From: an uncultured SAR86 cluster bacterium
Lineage (GTDB): Bacteria > Pseudomonadota > Gammaproteobacteria > Magnimaribacterales > AG-339-G14
NCBI GenBank assembly: GCA_902553315.1
Contig: CACDKN010000001.1
Span: 216,145 to 280,144, forward strand
Length of the DNA: 64,000 nucleotides
Direction: 5' to 3'
Shown: positions 56,647 through 63,675 of the stretch, one piece after another
How positions within the stretch are numbered: position 1 is the stretch's first letter
Layout: every line of letters begins with the position of its first letter
Program-made: the position numbers and the translations under genes
Notes under the pieces: generated by a model
What the model saw: only the letters and a program-made list of their open reading frames with translations
Told to the model about the DNA's origin: nothing
The model's database searches: none

Positions 56647-57612
56647 CTAATTTCTTGAAAACTCATCAGTTGTTTCAATTAATAATTGAGAAATTTCTTT
56701 TTCAAAAGCCGAGTGTCCCGAAAATGGAGCAATTTTTAATTTAGATTCAGGCCAACGCGAATGTAATTCGTAAGCAGTGGTTGCTGGACAGACTACGTCA
56801 TATCTACCTTGAACAATAACTGTGGGAATATGTCTTATGGTATCAATATTATCTAGGAGCTGATTTTCATGATCTAGGAAACCATTGTTAATAAAGTAGT
56901 GATTTTCTATTTGAGCAAAAGCTAGCGCAAATTCAGCATTGATCGAATCTTTTACTGCATTTGGATTATGATTTATAAAGCTCGTTGAGGCTTCCCACTT
57001 TGACCAGGCCTTAGCAGCCGATAGTTTTTTTTCTTCATCAGATCCGTTAAAAATCTTTCTGTAAGCATCGATTAGATCAAATCTTTCGGCTTCCGGTATT
57101 TCATTTAAAAATCCTTGCCAAGCTTCAGGATAGATTTCACTTGCTCCATATTGATAAAACCATTTCAACTCTTTTTCTCTCAGCATGAAGATTCCTCTCA
57201 ATACAAGTTCTGTAACACACTCTGGGTGTTTTTGTGCATAAGCAAGTGCAAGTGTACTTCCCCAAGATCCGCCAAATACTAACCACTTTTCAATTTCTAA
57301 CTTTTTTCTTATCGTTTCTATGTCTTGGACTAAATGCCAAGTTGTATTATTTTCTAAATAAGCATGAGGTTTACTTTTTCCACAACCCCTTTGATCAAAA
57401 AGGACAATTCTGTATTTTTTTGGATTAAAAAATCTTCTTGAAAATTTACCAGCGCCACCGCCAGGACCGCCGTGAAGAAAAACGGCTGGTTTTCCTCTCG
57501 GATTCCCACATTGTTCATAATAAATTTCATGAATTCCGTCCTTAATAAAACCTGAGTCAAACGGCTCTATTGCAGGGTAAAGAATTTGTTTCTTTCTGAA
57601 GAATTTCATCAA
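56647..57612 (-). CDS. pip: prolyl aminopeptidase (proline iminopeptidase)
   Basis: 321 aa with HGGPGGG, the GGSWGSTL nucleophile elbow and a C-terminal SGHSAFE. Confidence 0.85.
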   Translation of the reverse strand: MMKFFRKKQILYPAIEPFDSGFIKDGIHEIYYEQCGNPRGKPAVFLHGGPGGGAGKFSRRFFNPKKYRIVLFDQRGCGKSKPHAYLENNTTWHLVQDIETIRKKLEIEKWLVFGGSWGSTLALAYAQKHPECVTELVLRGIFMLREKELKWFYQYGASEIYPEAWQGFLNEIPEAERFDLIDAYRKIFNGSDEEKKLSAAKAWSKWEASTSFINHNPNAVKDSINAEFALAFAQIENHYFINNGFLDHENQLLDNIDTIRHIPTVIVQGRYDVVCPATTAYELHSRWPESKLKIAPFSGHSAFEKEISQLLIETTDEFSRN

Positions 57613-57654
57613 GACATCATACTTTAGGTTTTTTTTGAAAGATATTTTTTAAAA

Positions 57655-57699
57655 GGTGCCCAGAGGTAGAATCGAACCACCGACACAAGGATTTTCAGT
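57655..57699 (-). repeat. tRNA-Phe 3'-half copy 1 (distal att-like repeat, slightly diverged)
   Basis: ggtgcccagaggtAgaatcgaaccaccgacacaaggattttcagt matches 61523-61567 with 1 mismatch. The terminal A of CCA is absent. Similarity decays over the next ~13 nt. Confidence 0.8.
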
Positions 57700-57779
57700 T
57701 CTTCGTTCGTAAGTCCTAATCCCTTTAAAGTATTACCTTTCAGACCATTTGTGTGCACACATGAAAGCAGCAATTTAAT

Positions 57780-58040
57780 TTATCTTTTAAGGGTTTTTAA
57801 TATTTCCTCAACCTTATTGTCAAAACCCTTCTCATCATTTAAGGCTTCCTTAACACATTCTTTCATATGTCTTTTTAATATTTTTCCTTCAATACTTGTA
57901 AGAGCATTTCTAACTGCCTTGATTTGATTGAGTATATCAATGCAATATTTTTCTTCATCAATCATGTTAGCAATTCCACGAACCTGTCCTTCAATTCTGT
58001 TAAGACTAGGAATTTCTTCTTTATGGCATGGACTTTTCAT
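57780..58040 (-). CDS. CsoR/RcnR/FrmR-family metal-sensing repressor, C-H-C (CsoR-type) ligand pattern
   Basis: 86 aa with Cys in KYCIDILNQ and His and Cys in KRHMKEC (H-x3-C). The protein is all-helical in the DUF156 family layout. Confidence 0.8.
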   Translation of the reverse strand: MKSPCHKEEIPSLNRIEGQVRGIANMIDEEKYCIDILNQIKAVRNALTSIEGKILKRHMKECVKEALNDEKGFDNKVEEILKTLKR

Positions 58041-58402
58041 ACGAATTTAGGAACTAAATAAGTAAATATTGTAGCAAAAATAAACAATACAACTGAAATG
58101 TAATAAACGTATCTTGATTGTTTTCTAGTTTGCATGCATAACTTGCCTAACTCAGGATCTGTGGGGCAAGGCATATAATAAGTTTTATAATTCACATATC
58201 CAGCAAAAATGATCGTCACTGAAGCAAATATTGTTATAGATAATTTATATTGAGATAAGACAATTAAAAATGGAAAGACTGTTATTAAACTTGCAAAAGA
58301 AGCACCTGCACCAATTGCAATAAATAATGAAGGAAGTGCACAACATATTAAAGTTGATGACGAGGCAAACAAGGATAAAAAATTTGCTGATTTATCTTGC
58401 AT
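58037..58402 (-). CDS. MerT-like three-TM membrane protein with CC motif
   Basis: 121 aa. TM1 carries LICCALPSL. The loop after TM2 carries C-P-x9-C (PCPTDPELGKLC). This matches MerT in size and Cys topology (CC in TM1, a Cys pair in the cytoplasmic loop). Confidence 0.55.
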   Translation of the reverse strand: MQDKSANFLSLFASSSTLICCALPSLFIAIGAGASFASLITVFPFLIVLSQYKLSITIFASVTIIFAGYVNYKTYYMPCPTDPELGKLCMQTRKQSRYVYYISVVLFIFATIFTYLVPKFV

Positions 58403-58407
58403 AATTT

Positions 58408-58821
58408 TTAAAGATTAATAACCTGCATATCAATTGCATTTTGTCCGTTTATTAGAATTTTTTCCTTGATATCATCAAAGATTATTTCATGAGCAACATT
58501 GTATGCAATTAAAACTTTTCCTTTGCTCAGATCAACGTCTACTTTTTTTACATTAGTGTCTTTTTTAAATGTTTTTTCAATACCTCTAGCACAAAAATCA
58601 CACACCATACCTTGAACATTCACGATTGCAATTTGGGTATCTTTAAGATCCATAACGAATTTATCAAATCTCTCAGGATCAACTTCTAATTTCTTACCAT
58701 CTACAAATTCTTCATGCACATGTCCTTCATGATTATGATGCATGCCGTTATGAGGGGTTTCTCCCCATGCCATTGAAGTAAAAATAAGAATTAATAATAT
58801 ATTTTTCATTTTTCCTCTCAA
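58408..58821 (-). CDS. periplasmic heavy-metal-associated (HMA) domain protein with His-rich N-terminal region
   Basis: 137 aa with a signal peptide, the His-rich stretch HNGMHHNHEGHVHEE, and an HMA fold with GMVCDFC. Confidence 0.75.
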   Translation of the reverse strand: MRGKMKNILLILIFTSMAWGETPHNGMHHNHEGHVHEEFVDGKKLEVDPERFDKFVMDLKDTQIAIVNVQGMVCDFCARGIEKTFKKDTNVKKVDVDLSKGKVLIAYNVAHEIIFDDIKEKILINGQNAIDMQVINL

Positions 58822-59417
58822 AATCTATACATTAGATGAATATCCCATTCAGTTTTTTTGCTATAACCAAACTCCATAAGAACATTTCCTTTAAAAAATT
58901 TTAACACAGGGTAAGTTGACCACTTATTCTCAAGAGAATTATCTTTTGCCTTAATCATTATCCATGTGTGCAAGTCACCGTAATCACCAAGATAGGGTGC
59001 AACTCCTATTTGATAGTATTGTTCTAAATAGTCTTGAATTTTTCTTTCAGTTTCCTTTATTCCAAAACCAACAAATAATCTTCTTGTTTCCCAATCTCCA
59101 TGTACACCATAAAAAAATTCATCAAAACCTTTTGAACTAACACCAGATTGAAAATACAAATTTCTTTGAGAGTTTTCAGTATTCTTTCTATTTATCAAGT
59201 ATGTATATCTAACATATGAATAATTATCATTAAAATATTTATTTCTCATAACTTCAATCCCAATCGAGTATTTATAGGATGGCGAATAATGGTAGTAGAT
59301 AGAATTTTTTATGTTATCTGAAAATGCCATTATGGTTGAACCACCTGTGTAAGATATAGGTCTAGCATCAAGTCCAAACGACATGACAGACAAGAGACAA
59401 ATAATTCTTATACCCAT
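58818..59417 (-). CDS. putative small outer-membrane beta-barrel protein
   Basis: 199 aa with a signal peptide, an alternating aromatic/polar strand pattern and a C-terminal ...LMYRF. No recognisable SD precedes the ATG. Confidence 0.45.
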   Translation of the reverse strand: MGIRIICLLSVMSFGLDARPISYTGGSTIMAFSDNIKNSIYYHYSPSYKYSIGIEVMRNKYFNDNYSYVRYTYLINRKNTENSQRNLYFQSGVSSKGFDEFFYGVHGDWETRRLFVGFGIKETERKIQDYLEQYYQIGVAPYLGDYGDLHTWIMIKAKDNSLENKWSTYPVLKFFKGNVLMEFGYSKKTEWDIHLMYRF

Positions 59418-59426
59418 TGGGGGTAT
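59410..59426. promoter_or_regulatory. CsoR-type operator candidate: ATACCC-N5-GGGTAT inverted repeat overlapping the first start codon of the islet A operon
   Basis: Plus-strand text is ATACCCattggGGGTAT. The C/G tract is conspicuous in this AT-rich sequence. The ATG (59417-59415) lies inside the repeat. A TAAAAT hexamer lies immediately upstream on the coding strand. Confidence 0.45.
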
Positions 59427-59465
59427 TTTAGTATTATTGTGTTGGTTTTAAAAAGTTTATTTCGT

Positions 59466-59511
59466 TGGTGCCCAGAGGTGGAATCGAACCACCGACACAA
59501 GGATTTTCAGT
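59466..59511 (-). repeat. tRNA-Phe 3'-half copy 2 (internal att-like repeat, exact)
   Basis: tggtgcccagaggtggaatcgaaccaccgacacaaggattttcagt is identical to 61522-61567. Confidence 0.85.
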
Positions 59512-59560
59512 TCATGACTCGAGAATAGAAACCCTTTATTATTCCATGTTCCAAACTCTT

Positions 59561-59584
59561 CTGTTCACCTAACTGTTCACCAAA
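59561..59584 (+). repeat. tandem 12-bp motif CTGTTCACC(T/A)AA x2 at the left end of islet B
   Basis: Read directly as ctgttcacctaa ctgttcaccaaa. A related copy lies at 61469-61483. Confidence 0.4.
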
Positions 59585-59747
59585 TAGTTAAAATTAAATG
59601 TTATTTTCTTAGAAATATGAACATCAAAGATAGAGTTTTTCAATGAGAAGATTCTATTATGCATCAAAGTATCGAAAAGGTTCTTTTGAGATTATATAAT
59701 TGAACTTATGATTATTGAAAATAATTACTATGGGAAATTGATACAAG

Positions 59748-60680
59748 ATGCATAAGACTTCTCACTCAGTAATGTTTCACCACTTTCATGATGACAAACA
59801 TTTGCGTGCTCAAGGCAGTTTAAGTTCATCTGACTTTATCCAAATGATTGACTGGTTAAACAAACACTATTCAATTTTGGGTGCCAGTCAATATAAGGAG
59901 AAGTTTGAAAACGGCACTTTAAAAAATACAGATATATGCATGTCTTTTGATGACGCATTGAAGTGCCAATACGACATTGCTGTTCCAGTGATGGAGAGAT
60001 TGGGTATTGAAGCATTCTTCTTCGTTTACAGCAGTGCTTTCGGTCAAAACCCCGACCCATTGGAAATCTATAGGTATTTTAGAACTGTTTGCTATTTTGA
60101 TATTGACAAGTTTTATGAAGATTTTTTTGATTCAGTTGAGCAAATAGATACGAAAGAATTTTCTCGGCATCATGCCAAATACTTAGAACTAAATTACCTA
60201 GCAGCATTTCCCTTTTATACCGAAAACGACAAATGGTTCCGATATCTCCGAGACCAGTATCTAGTTGGAAATCAATACGATGAACTCATGAATGAGTTGA
60301 TGATTCAAAATGATTTTGATGCGAATGCTGCAAAGAAAGACCTATGGATGTCAGAAGAAGATTTGGTTGCTACAGAGTCTAAAGGTCATCTGATTGGTTT
60401 GCACTCATACTCACATCCAACTCAGATGAGCAAATTAAGTAAAGAAAAGCAAGAATTGGAATATCAAAAGAATTATGACCATCTTAAGGGTTTAATTGGA
60501 AAACCTATTAGAGTCATGTCACATCCATGTGGTGACTACAACGAAACCACTCTAGAAATTCTTAAGAGTATGAAAATAGACATTGGATTCAGGTCTAATA
60601 TGTCCTTAACAGAAATTCGTTCCCCTCTTGAGATTCCTAGAGAAGACCATGCCAATGTCTTCAAGGCAATGCGTCTATGA
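59748..60680 (+). CDS. polysaccharide deacetylase (CE4/NodB-like) family protein
   Basis: 310 aa with MSFDDAL (the D-D motif) and HSYSHP (the His-His motif). Confidence 0.65.
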   Translation: MHKTSHSVMFHHFHDDKHLRAQGSLSSSDFIQMIDWLNKHYSILGASQYKEKFENGTLKNTDICMSFDDALKCQYDIAVPVMERLGIEAFFFVYSSAFGQNPDPLEIYRYFRTVCYFDIDKFYEDFFDSVEQIDTKEFSRHHAKYLELNYLAAFPFYTENDKWFRYLRDQYLVGNQYDELMNELMIQNDFDANAAKKDLWMSEEDLVATESKGHLIGLHSYSHPTQMSKLSKEKQELEYQKNYDHLKGLIGKPIRVMSHPCGDYNETTLEILKSMKIDIGFRSNMSLTEIRSPLEIPREDHANVFKAMRL

Positions 60681-61459
60681 AAGTCACTATTTTCAGCAGC
60701 AACCAACCACGACACCTAAACATCGCAAAGGAGTTTTCAAAAATTTGTGATTCAGTCTTTCTGGTTAGTGAAGTAAATACCGTGTTTCCTGGTCAAGTTA
60801 ACGACTTTTACAAAAAGTCGGAAATAATGCAGACATACTTCCAAAATGTAATTCAATCAGAAAGAAACATATTTGGTGACATCAGTTTCATGCCACACAA
60901 CGTGAGAAACCTCTCCATTAAATCAGGGGACTTAAATAAACTTAGTAGAAAGCAACTATCTGATGCACTTCAATCCGATGTCTATGTTGTCTTTGGTGCT
61001 AGTTACATCAAAGGGTGGTTAATTGATTTTCTTATAGAACATCGTGCAATAAACATTCACATGGGTCTTTCTCCTTATTACAGAGGTTCCTCATGCAATT
61101 TTTGGGCACTCTTTGATAATAATCCAAGTTATGTGGGAGCAACCATACATCTGTTGAGCAAAGGTTTGGATAGTGGGGATATGCTTTTCCACTGTGTCCC
61201 AAAACTTCATCCAGAAGACACTCCATTTGACTTTACTATGCGTTCAGTATTAGTAGCACAGCAAGGTTTGGTCTCTTTGGTTGACTCCAAATTAATATTC
61301 TCTGCCCCCACAGTAAAACAGGATAAATCACAAGAAATACGATATACAAAGAACCAAGATTTTACAGATGATGTTGCAAAAGAGTTCTTAGATAGAAATC
61401 TTCAATTGAATCCAGATTCATTTTCATATCCTAAGTTATTGAATCCTATTTTTGGTTAA
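60677..61459 (+). CDS. formyltransferase-like protein (Fmt/PurN N-domain fold)
   Basis: 260 aa. INIHMGLSPYYRGSSCNFWALFDN...GATIHLLSKGLDSGDML parallels the N-I-H...G-x-T-I-H...D-x-G core of formyltransferases. It overlaps the upstream gene by 4 nt. Confidence 0.55.
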   Translation: MKVTIFSSNQPRHLNIAKEFSKICDSVFLVSEVNTVFPGQVNDFYKKSEIMQTYFQNVIQSERNIFGDISFMPHNVRNLSIKSGDLNKLSRKQLSDALQSDVYVVFGASYIKGWLIDFLIEHRAINIHMGLSPYYRGSSCNFWALFDNNPSYVGATIHLLSKGLDSGDMLFHCVPKLHPEDTPFDFTMRSVLVAQQGLVSLVDSKLIFSAPTVKQDKSQEIRYTKNQDFTDDVAKEFLDRNLQLNPDSFSYPKLLNPIFG

Positions 61460-61468
61460 TTTTTATAA

Positions 61469-61483
61469 TCACCAACTGTTCAC
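61469..61483 (+). repeat. TCACCAACTGTTCAC motif at the right end of islet B
   Basis: Matches CACC(T)AACTGTTCAC at 59566-59580 in the same orientation, 38 nt from the tRNA 3' end. Confidence 0.35.
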
Positions 61484-61521
61484 TTATTTTTATCTCGAAA
61501 ACTCTAAAAACATTGAAGGAA

Positions 61522-61597
61522 TGGTGCCCAGAGGTGGAATCGAACCACCGACACAAGGATTTTCAGTCCTTTGCTCTACCAACTGAGCTATCTGGGC
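61522..61597 (-). tRNA. tRNA-Phe (anticodon GAA), CCA encoded
   Basis: The reverse complement GCCCAGATAGCTCAGTTGGTAGAGCAAAGGACTGAAAATCCTTGTGTCGGTGGTTCGATTCCACCTCTGGGCACCA folds by hand into a 76-nt cloverleaf with 7/4/5/5-bp stems and is very close to E. coli tRNA-Phe. Confidence 0.92.
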
Positions 61598-61680: not shown

Positions 61681-63675
61681 TTGCCTAAGAAAAAATTAAA
61701 ATGGGGAGTAATTGGAAATGGGGGAATCGCCAATGCTTTTTCTCATTCGATCAAACATTCTGAAACTTCAGAACTTCAAGCGGTATTCGGAAGGAATGAA
61801 ACTAAAGTAAAGAATTTTGCACAAAAACATGAAATAGATTCTTTCGACAAACTAGATAATTTTTTGAAAAGCGGCATTGAAGCGGTCTATGTAGCTACTC
61901 CTCATGTTTCTCATTTCAAATATTCTTTGGACTGCATAAGAAGTAATCTTCATGTGTTGTGTGAAAAACCTTTAACGATAAATTCCTCTGAATCAACGAT
62001 ATTAATTAATGAAGCCCAAAAAAGAGAAGTTTTTCTTATGGAGGCATTTATGTATAGATGTCACCCTCAGACTTTTAAGATTTTGGAGTACATTGAAAAG
62101 CATTTTTCCAATAAAAGAGTTTTTTTAAAGAGTTCATTTGGCTTTAGTGCTGACGTGTCAAAAGAGCATAGATTAAGAAATCCAAAGTTAGCAGGAGGTG
62201 CAATTCTAGATGTAGGTTGCTATCCCTTATCTATGGCGAGACTAATTGGCGGAAAGCTAACAGGTCTCCCTTTTGCAGAGCCTTCTAAAATAACCGTAGA
62301 AGGGGAGTTAGATGAAACCGGTGTTGATGCTAAATCAATATCGACGATTAAATTTTCAGAAAATATTTCTGCAGAAATCAAGACGGCTATTAATGAGAAC
62401 TATGAAAACAATTTGATTGTTGAAGCAGAAAACTTGAGATTAGAAATTTCTGACCCTTGGCATTGCGGACAATTTAACAATGGCATTTCTTCGGTTAAAT
62501 TTATTAATCAAGGAAAAGAAGAAATCATCCAGATAAATGATGAAGTAGGATTGTTTACTAGAGAAATTGATGAGGCGGCAAATTGCATAGCTCAAAATAA
62601 TTTCGAATCGTCTTTGATGTCCCATAAGGATACTTTAGGAAACATTCTTTCCTTAGAAAAATGGTATTCCAAGCTAGGAGTAATTTACCCAAGCAACGAA
62701 ATCAAAAATTCTCCAATAATTGATCATTATTTTCATTTAGATTCCAACTTAGAAAAAGATACAACTGAAATACTAGGAAAATCAACTCCGAAAGTAGTCT
62801 TTGGTTGTGATAATCAAATTTCAGATTTACATGCCTACTGTATGTTTGAACATTTCTATCAACAAGGTGGAAGAATTTTTGATACCGCTTACATCTACAA
62901 CAATGGTCTTTCAGATAAATACCTCGGCAATTGGATAAGAAAAAAAAATATTCAAGACGAGGTGATTATTCTTGGAAAGGGCGCCCATACACCACAGTGT
63001 GAACCAAGTTTTATAGAGCCTCAAATAAAAGAATCTTTAAAGAGACTTAGCTTAAATAAATTTGATATTTATTGTTTGCATAGAGATAACCCTGAAGTTC
63101 CTGTAGGCGAATTTATTGATAAATTAAATGAATTAAAACAAGCTGGATTCATTTCAATTTTGGGTGCGTCAAATTGGAGTCTTAATAGGTTTAGTGAGGC
63201 AAATGAATATGCCGAAGCTAATGATAAAGAAGGATTTAAAGTATTGAGTAACAACTTTAGTTTGGCAGAAATGAATCAGCCTGTTTGGCCTGGTTGTTTG
63301 AGGTGTGATGAAGAATTTTTAGATTACGTAATTAAGAATAATATTTATTTGTTTCCATGGTCCAGTCAGGCTCGTGGATTTTTTGTACAACAACAATCAT
63401 TCCCAAAAGTTGCCCATGGAGCTAACCCAACTCTGGAAGAAGAATTAAGGGTTTGGCATAGCCGGTCAAATTTAGATAGAAGAGAGAGGTGTTTTCATTT
63501 GGCCGGTGAATTAGGTTGCACGGCAATTGAGTTAGCATTAGCTTACGTCATCAATAGACATGAAAATATTTTTCCTTTAATTGGTCCAAGAAATCTATTT
63601 GAATCGGAGAGTTGTATGCGAGCCTTGTCAATCAAACTTACAAGCAAACAAATTACCTTTTTATTAAATGGATAA
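61681..63675 (+). CDS. bifunctional fusion: Gfo/Idh/MocA-family oxidoreductase (N-terminal) plus aldo/keto reductase (C-terminal)
   Basis: 664 aa with a TTG start 7 nt after AAAGGGGAGAG. The N-terminal half has WGVIGNGGIA and LCEKPL. The C-terminal half has FDTAYIY..G.S..YLG, YCLHRDN and LGASNW. Confidence 0.75.
   Translation: MPKKKLKWGVIGNGGIANAFSHSIKHSETSELQAVFGRNETKVKNFAQKHEIDSFDKLDNFLKSGIEAVYVATPHVSHFKYSLDCIRSNLHVLCEKPLTINSSESTILINEAQKREVFLMEAFMYRCHPQTFKILEYIEKHFSNKRVFLKSSFGFSADVSKEHRLRNPKLAGGAILDVGCYPLSMARLIGGKLTGLPFAEPSKITVEGELDETGVDAKSISTIKFSENISAEIKTAINENYENNLIVEAENLRLEISDPWHCGQFNNGISSVKFINQGKEEIIQINDEVGLFTREIDEAANCIAQNNFESSLMSHKDTLGNILSLEKWYSKLGVIYPSNEIKNSPIIDHYFHLDSNLEKDTTEILGKSTPKVVFGCDNQISDLHAYCMFEHFYQQGGRIFDTAYIYNNGLSDKYLGNWIRKKNIQDEVIILGKGAHTPQCEPSFIEPQIKESLKRLSLNKFDIYCLHRDNPEVPVGEFIDKLNELKQAGFISILGASNWSLNRFSEANEYAEANDKEGFKVLSNNFSLAEMNQPVWPGCLRCDEEFLDYVIKNNIYLFPWSSQARGFFVQQQSFPKVAHGANPTLEEELRVWHSRSNLDRRERCFHLAGELGCTAIELALAYVINRHENIFPLIGPRNLFESESCMRALSIKLTSKQITFLLNG

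Follow-up and report, generated by a model that had tools for sequence, protein, structure and literature searches.

Integrase-less cassettes stacked at the tRNA-Phe gene of a SAR86 bacterium: probable tandem accretion with the help of a tyrosine integrase family

Introduction

How do operon-sized DNA segments that encode no recombinase come to be stacked, one behind the other, at a single tRNA gene? The question is raised by a 64-kb stretch of contig CACDKN010000001.1 from an uncultured SAR86 bacterium (hereafter the window), in which two short segments, islet A and islet B, lie between a tRNA-Phe(GAA) gene and a gene for a pip-like hydrolase (hereafter pip), each bounded on both sides by copies of the 3' part of the tRNA. 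Comparison with related loci and metagenome contigs, labelled here with L-numbers, suggests an answer: the array probably arose by tandem accretion of integrase-less cassettes, similar to cis-mobilisable elements (CIMEs), at a tRNA hotspot, with a tyrosine integrase family acting in trans or in cis. The evidence consists of the repeats themselves, the polymorphism of the site among SAR86 species, the near-identity of the islets in hosts with divergent flanks, the conserved layout of the cassette ends, and an integrase family found beside the same tRNA half in relatives.

Results

Three copies of the tRNA-Phe 3' half

A sequence-only reading of this DNA had placed an intact tRNA-Phe(GAA) gene next to islet B, and ARAGORN and Rfam agree on it. 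The repeated 46-mer (61522-61567 within the gene) starts at the final base of the 5' strand of the anticodon stem and extends through CCA. The three copies that had been reported, all in one orientation, were reproduced by sequence search (Table 1), and none of 100 dinucleotide-preserving shuffles of the window contained a match. Two further bases (TC) are common to both half copies and differ from the tRNA. The tRNA gene is best read as a composite attL, in which the 5' part would belong to the host and the 3' 46 nt would have been brought by the newest cassette.

The outermost copy lies 42 nt from the start of pip and ends in CACC-T, with no encoded terminal A. Because the tRNA of an empty site in another SAR86 locus (L003) ends in the same way, this copy has the look of the tRNA's native 3' end, displaced outward, which is how the sequence-only reading had taken it. 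Across SAR86, the 3' half of tRNA-Phe hardly varies, and the left edge of the repeat is always at the anticodon loop. Extra copies, wherever found, are close to the tRNA-Phe site, and a repeat family dispersed over other loci is not what was seen.

Partial tRNA-Phe copies that also start at ACTGAAAATCC, which is the same anticodon-loop position, were observed in viral contigs of unrelated organisms of higher GC content (L097:10976-11018, L099:12174-12216 and L102:5753-5795). An anticodon-loop boundary may be common to tRNA-Phe-targeting integrases.

Polymorphism of the site across SAR86

The site was compared at 80 loci drawn from one-genome-per-species bacterial assemblies, almost all of them labelled SAR86, with pip as the anchor (best match 89% identical at the protein level). 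At 53 of the 80, a tRNA-Phe gene lies within 10 kb of pip. As the sequence-only reading had anticipated, the site is occupied differently from one relative to the next, with empty, single-islet, two-islet and alternative-cargo variants. Five loci (L003, L033, L035, L045 and L070) are empty, the intact tRNA-Phe lying 23-93 bp from pip; single islets occur in L002, L037 and L010, two islets are found in L004 and L005, and larger inserts are also present. At least one extra half copy was detected at 22 of the 80 loci.

Fully bounded cassettes, 20 in number and 0.65-5.6 kb long, carry unrelated cargo, and only one of them (in L094) contains an integrase gene. Besides the metal operon of islet A, the cargo at this site comprises HIT and HNH proteins, FG-GAP and fn3 lipoproteins, a Dcm methylase accompanied by two small genes without family matches, and proteins of no assigned function. 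Also among the cargo are large genes that look, from their sequences, like type III and type I restriction-modification systems.

Further features were observed around the site. In one SAR86 clade (L047-L072), the tRNA-Phe gene is inverted relative to pip, a PhyH gene lies in between, and cassettes and half copies build up on the far side of the tRNA (for instance L058:8202-8942 and L066:6666-8918). In L001 (7579-9999), a gene for an 806-aa FG-GAP-like lipoprotein lies between the outer half copy and pip with no further core copy, and therefore not every insertion here leaves a recognisable repeat. Beside a tRNA-Phe half copy in L026 (937-1437), a 166-aa open reading frame gives a weak, below-cut-off match (E = 0.007) to REP_ORF2-G2P, a rolling-circle replication protein family.

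Recent movement of both islets between species

Islet A is 98.0% identical to its counterpart in L004, 97.6% to that in L005 and 93% to those in L001 and L002, against 67-72% identity upstream and 78-82% in pip for the flanks of these relatives. This high identity does not extend past the core copies: outside the last of them, each clade shows a sequence of its own that matches its empty site.

Islet B was absent from the 80 species loci. The deacetylase protein that it encodes is indexed, in identical form, in 31 blocks of a metagenome collection, and 23 contigs carrying it were examined. In contig L228, islet B is 99.95% identical over 2139 bp, while the DNA beyond the 5' end of the tRNA is 94.5% identical to L068, a member of the inverted-tRNA clade whose pip region is 72% identical to that of the window. 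The sole mismatch in L228 is the host-specific D-loop base of the tRNA, which places the junction inside the tRNA gene, since that base is the host's own.

Because islet identity greatly exceeds flank identity and ends at the cores, both integrase-less islets have recently moved, each as a discrete unit, between species. A vertically inherited relic was considered and ruled out, the cassette identity being far above that of the flanks.

Architecture of the cassette ends

Read in the orientation of the tRNA, each cassette opens with a P' arm immediately behind CCA, and a P arm closes it directly ahead of the following core copy. The 8-mer GTGAACAG occurs three times in the 64 kb, every time on the tRNA strand and within the ends of islet B. 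The same arm layout surrounds unrelated cargo in L005, L019, L048, L057, L066, L074, L075 and L111. The shared P arm consists of two repeats starting approximately 57 and 69 nt from the core, together with a conserved core-proximal stretch of approximately 45 nt; the shared P' arm holds one or two repeats some 30-40 nt after CCA, often with an inverted copy in addition. L005 offers the clearest parallel: its array likewise has two slots, and the distal one is occupied by the same metal cassette. The proximal cassette there has arms of the GGTGAACAG type, the P' arm showing this motif two times and once more in inverted form, and HIT and HNH genes take the place of the deacetylase pair. Such an arrangement of the ends is that of a lambda/P4-type attP with arm-type sites, as established for those systems.

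Alignment shows that in the window a 55-nt deletion took one of two GTGCACAC repeats from the P arm of islet A. L004, L005 and L227, the last being a strain of 97.9% identity, keep both at the corresponding positions, and in L001 the P arm of islet A is wholly lost. With one arm repeat gone, islet A may be on its way to fixation in this strain. Islet B, whose arms are largely intact, looks still competent. Of the two, islet B is in better condition and has spread more recently; adjoining the tRNA, it is placed by its position as the newest arrival, and islet A, distal to the tRNA, as the older.

A metagenome scan with the pattern GTGAACAGN{3,4}GTGAACAG was unspecific, soil and gut contigs being among the matches listed; within that list only L111 was a SAR86 cassette end, and L108 was unrelated. 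Viral contigs contained no match to the exact 45-mer core or to the P-arm-plus-core pattern, and with a shorter core pattern the matches in them were confined to tRNA-Phe genes or tRNA-Phe halves from unrelated organisms, most of higher GC content.

A tyrosine integrase family at the same core

Among the six islet proteins, Pfam recognised no recombinase, transposase or replication domain, in agreement with the earlier claim that neither segment holds an integrase, transposase or replication gene. In relatives, a tyrosine integrase adjoining the same tRNA-Phe half, sought on the strength of the sequence-only reading, was found in L017, L025, L091, L093, L094 and L225. The proteins of L017 and L025, 461-489 aa long, directly adjoin the half copy and both match the Pfam family Phage_integrase; Arm-DNA-bind_3 is also matched by the L017 protein and, by precomputed annotation, by most database homologues. 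The integrases of L091, L093 and L225 are 65-94% identical to that of L025 (72% for L225), and homologues are present in marine metagenomes.

Integrase-bearing elements have arm-like repeats of their own. Short direct repeats lie between the core and the integrase start in L091, L093 and L225, those of L225 comprising GTGAACAT three times and GTGAACC once, those of L093 being CGTGAACC; L025 carries TGTGAACCTA repeats. The only bounded cassette with an integrase, L094, is a complete element of 5.6 kb: besides the integrase gene it has an intact tRNA and a half copy, and the AAGTAATCA repeats of its two arms match.

Identity of the family to phage integrases in the INPHARED collection does not exceed 26%, and no member was found in IMG/VR contigs. 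Accessory genes of the integrase-bearing elements gave no informative function with Pfam or PHROGs; no primase, helicase or excisionase-type hallmarks were recognised in the integrase-bearing L081, L088, L091 and L094, and neither the cassettes nor the integrase-bearing relatives showed any conjugation or mobilisation genes.

Two side observations concern this family. A sister branch (L081-L090, 41-46% identical) adjoins the 3' half of a tRNA with anticodon CAT (Met or Ile2), for instance in L081:9777-10001, L085:1-132 and L088:5860-6121, with its own arm repeats (GATGACC, GATAACT, GGTGACT) and with DNA methylase, Z1 and HATPase defence-like genes among its cargo. In addition, a 1.8-kb metagenome contig (L093:1-410) carries CGTGAACC on both sides of one tRNA-Phe core next to its integrase, and could be an excised circle, a tandem or a neighbouring cassette of the same arm type; it was not accepted as proof of an excised circle, since a similar P' arm in L031 belongs to a neighbouring cassette.

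Gene content of the islets and their flanks

The features of the locus are listed in Table 1. The segments delimited by the core copies, earlier put at about 1.77 and 2.0 kb, measure 1766 and 2010 bp. Each was also said to be one operon with 48-236 bp of flanking non-coding DNA, which holds: islet A contains four co-oriented genes with non-coding ends of 80 and 48 bp, and islet B two genes with ends of 236 and 62 bp.

The gene for the 199-aa protein that opens the islet A operon was always found together with the other three. A homologue of this metal operon, 67% identical and inverted, occurs downstream of tRNA-Phe in L080 (5384-7030). No core copy bounds it towards pip, and it may represent an older acquisition that has become fixed, or may point to a different source of the operon. 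In islet B, the start of the formyltransferase-like gene overlaps the end of the deacetylase gene, and from the two protein families we infer a role for the pair in cell-surface sugar modification. Promoter-like hexamers were noticed just upstream of the first gene of each islet, at 59672-59700 (+) and 59452-59425 (-), and a cassette may thus come with a promoter of its own; across the region as a whole, promoter-like matches are no commoner than in shuffled sequence.

Table 1. Features of the tRNA-Phe locus in the 64-kb window (coordinates are positions in the window).
Feature	Position	Strand	Remarks
pip-like alpha/beta hydrolase, core-genome flank on the attR side	56647-57612	-	Pfam; anchor for the 80 SAR86 loci
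Core copy 1 (outermost)	57654-57699	-	Two mismatches: A at 57668 and the base replacing the final A of CCA
Islet A, integrase-less cassette with metal-handling operon	57700-59465		1766 bp; distal to the tRNA
P arm of islet A	57700-57779	-	Truncated; one of two GTGCACAC arm repeats left (57751-57760)
CsoR/RcnR-family metal-sensing repressor, 86 aa	57780-58040	-	Pfam PF02583; NCBIfam RicR/RcnR-like matches
Small membrane protein, weakly MerT-like, 121 aa	58037-58402	-	Pfam and NCBIfam, both below curated cut-offs
Exported HMA/CopZ-like heavy-metal-associated protein, 137 aa	58408-58821	-	Pfam PF00403; NCBIfam CopZ-like, below curated cut-offs
199-aa protein, first gene of the islet A operon	58818-59417	-	No Pfam or NCBIfam match
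Core copy 2	59466-59511	-	Exact 46-nt copy of the tRNA 3' half; divides islet B from islet A
Islet B, integrase-less cassette	59512-61521		2010 bp; adjoins the tRNA
P arm of islet B	59512-59600	-	Conserved core-proximal motif; GTGAACAG at 59561-59568 and 59573-59580
Polysaccharide deacetylase family protein, 310 aa	59748-60680	+	Pfam PF01522
Formyltransferase-like protein, 260 aa	60677-61459	+	Pfam PF00551; weak NCBIfam sugar/ArnA-type formyltransferase matches
P' arm of islet B	61460-61521	-	Intact GTGAACAG at 61476-61483, then a degenerate second copy
Intact tRNA-Phe(GAA)	61522-61597	-	ARAGORN; Rfam (75 bits); sole tRNA gene of the window
GFO/IDH/MocA-aldo/keto reductase fusion, core-genome flank 5' of the tRNA	61681-63675	+	Syntenic in L001-L003, L010 and L081

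Discussion

How the array may have been built

In the mechanism that we favour, the mobile form would be a circular cassette consisting of one operon and a portable attP of roughly 200 bp, as sequence comparisons suggest. Its attP would combine a P arm with two arm-type repeats approximately 57 and 69 nt from the core, a core of 46 nt identical to the tRNA-Phe 3' half from anticodon loop to CCA, and a P' arm with one or two of the same repeats some 30-40 nt after CCA. A tyrosine integrase with an N-terminal Arm-DNA-binding domain would recombine this attP with the tRNA gene, whereupon the incoming core would rebuild the tRNA and the old 3' end would be displaced outward, islet A having entered first and islet B second. 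Because 19 of the 20 bounded cassettes have no integrase yet keep their cis sites, mobility would come from an integrase acting in trans, or from co-excision in cis with an adjacent integrase-bearing element via the outer attachment (att) sites. We infer both the action of this particular integrase family on these cassettes and any route by which their DNA passes between cells.

Several observations weigh against this mechanism. No integrase of the cognate family is encoded within the 64-kb window, tblastn and a search of its six-frame translation with a hidden Markov model (HMM) of the family both being negative, and no integrase-bearing element was found whose arms have exactly GTGAACAG or GTGCACAC. 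The core-proximal P-arm motif differs between integrase-bearing elements and cassettes. The P arm of islet A is damaged in the window, neither an excised circle nor an empty-site read turned up for this strain, and the repeats on both sides of the L093 core may reflect two neighbouring elements.

Some of this damage could be taken to mean that the islets are dead remnants, that is, parts of larger, autonomous integrase-bearing elements that lost their integrase by deletion; their att sites and arm repeats would be fossils, and the islets would have ceased to move as units. Decay is the standard proposed origin of CIMEs (PMC5704250), integrase-bearing elements at the same site could be the ancestors, and the 55-nt deletion in islet A, its missing arm in L001 and the degenerate second P' repeat of islet B are what erosion would leave. 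We nevertheless think this unlikely. Fossils would not account for islets that are 98-99.95% identical between flanks of 67-82% identity, with the identity ending at the cores, or for an arm layout conserved in at least eight cassettes with unrelated cargo, and 19 integrase-less cassettes among 20 would be hard to obtain by independent precise deletions.

It is highly improbable that RecA alone would be responsible, through loop-out between the 46-bp repeats and, after uptake, re-entry by one homologous crossover within the 3' half of tRNA-Phe. The substrate would be adequate: the repeats match exactly or almost exactly along 46 bp, a length that exceeds the minimum for RecA-dependent recombination, and the near-invariance of the tRNA-Phe 3' half in SAR86 would offer homology in any recipient. 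Homologous recombination, however, accounts neither for the conservation, in unrelated cassettes, of arm-type repeats spaced at fixed distances to either side of the core nor for the constant left edge at the anticodon loop, and a dedicated integrase family is found at exactly this core. Finally, assembly artefact or chance similarity of the repeats can be dismissed: metagenome contigs often break at half copies (L111, L228) and repeats trouble assemblers, but the same three-copy layout stands in an independent 9.6-kb contig (L227, 97.9% identical), portions of that layout are covered by further contigs, many single-cell genomes show related arrangements, and the 100 shuffles of the window yielded no match. 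Tandem accretion of integrase-less cassettes with outside help thus keeps our preference as the probable explanation.

Relation to known systems

Accretion at the tRNA gene, as the sequence-only reading had it, is supported, with the qualification that the general phenomenon is already known from other marine bacteria. Passages of papers on Alteromonas (PMC4898812), Ca. Actinomarinales (PMC7771536) and Ca. Methylopumilus (PMC10872708) report additive flexible genomic islands at tRNA genes. A "tell-tale" tRNA repeat goes with the islands described in Alteromonas, and in that genus tRNA-Phe is among the most used island sites, identical cassettes occurring in distant species (passages of PMC4898812). 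To judge from these passages, the shared features are a fixed tRNA hotspot, varying numbers and kinds of cassettes, and near-identical cassettes in divergent species, and all the additive-island features for which the SAR86 locus was tested (variable cassettes, tRNA repeats, high-identity sharing across divergent cores) were found. The differences, measured against the same passages, are the SAR86 host and a repeat that is the full 46-nt segment from anticodon loop to CCA; moreover, arm-type repeats and a cognate integrase family are resolved in SAR86, and the passages of PMC4898812, PMC7771536 and PMC10872708 make no mention of either.

CIMEs and tandem accretion at att sites are known from the Streptococcus ICESt1 family, where the term is defined and cis co-excision of a CIME with a neighbouring integrase-bearing element is documented (PMC5704250). 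CIMEs keep their attL and attR flanks and lack integration and transfer genes; here, likewise, core copies lie on both sides of each islet and neither islet holds such genes. CIMEs are, however, described as decayed integrative and conjugative or integrative and mobilisable elements that move with conjugative helpers, whereas the SAR86 cassettes show no sign of conjugation genes. The SAR86 units also differ in being single operons of 1-3 kb that far outnumber their integrase-bearing relatives.

Tycheposon arrays of Prochlorococcus consist of elements divided by partial tRNAs, together with degenerated remnants (bioRxiv 10.1101/2020.12.28.424599). Common to both systems are a streamlined marine host, integration at tRNA genes, elements side by side, partial tRNAs and adaptive or defence cargo. 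The definition of a tycheposon, though, rests on a tyrosine recombinase clade of its own and on replication hallmark genes, and the islets have neither.

The ssrA islands of Dehalococcoides reportedly form tandem arrays with direct repeats of the 3' end of the gene; they are said generally to encode their own integrase and to be larger, their target being the transfer-messenger RNA gene. Such ssrA-specific islands have been described in that genus (passages of PMC3146451).

The comparison with a cassette array, also made in the sequence-only reading, stands insofar as operon-sized units are stacked; it does not extend to the integron type, the cassettes having a putative lambda/P4-type attP with arm-type sites. 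Integron arrays share only the logic of small recombinase-less units, mostly single operons, stacked on the promoter-proximal side with the newest next to the attachment site, and their attC hairpins are replaced here by direct tRNA-half repeats with arm-type sites. No intI, attI or attC was found in the window, where recombinases were searched for with one integrase-family HMM and no intI-specific model was run. An integron was ruled out as there is no intI or attC, and the array is headed by a tRNA gene whose neighbour is a GFO/AKR oxidoreductase gene. A prophage or phage satellite was rejected as well, Pfam having detected no phage structural, packaging or replication genes in the islets.

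The SAR86 array thus matches the marine additive islands and tycheposon arrays already described, and will not surprise specialists in marine mobile elements. A paper on SAR86 isolate genomes (PMC11582366) leaves integrases, tRNA sites, genomic islands and mobile elements all unmentioned; in the literature searched, with this as the SAR86 genome paper, the SAR86 case and the details of arms and integrase appear undescribed.

Significance for SAR86

The locus shows a route by which flexible genes for metal handling, surface-sugar modification and restriction-modification enter and spread among SAR86 species. A testable list of parts is gained with it, namely the core, the arm repeats and a candidate integrase family. 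The tRNA-Phe half in combination with the arm motif can serve as a marker for harvesting SAR86 cassettes from metagenomes, in which such regions usually break assemblies. As a tentative extension, which we hold possible without counting on it, SAR86 and perhaps other streamlined plankton might exchange maintained single-operon cassettes, each with an attP of approximately 200 bp, at tRNA anchors served by rare helper integrases. If this is true, it would amount to an integron-like gene market run on lambda/P4-type recombination, in which the cassettes would not be products of decay and would be shuttled between species.

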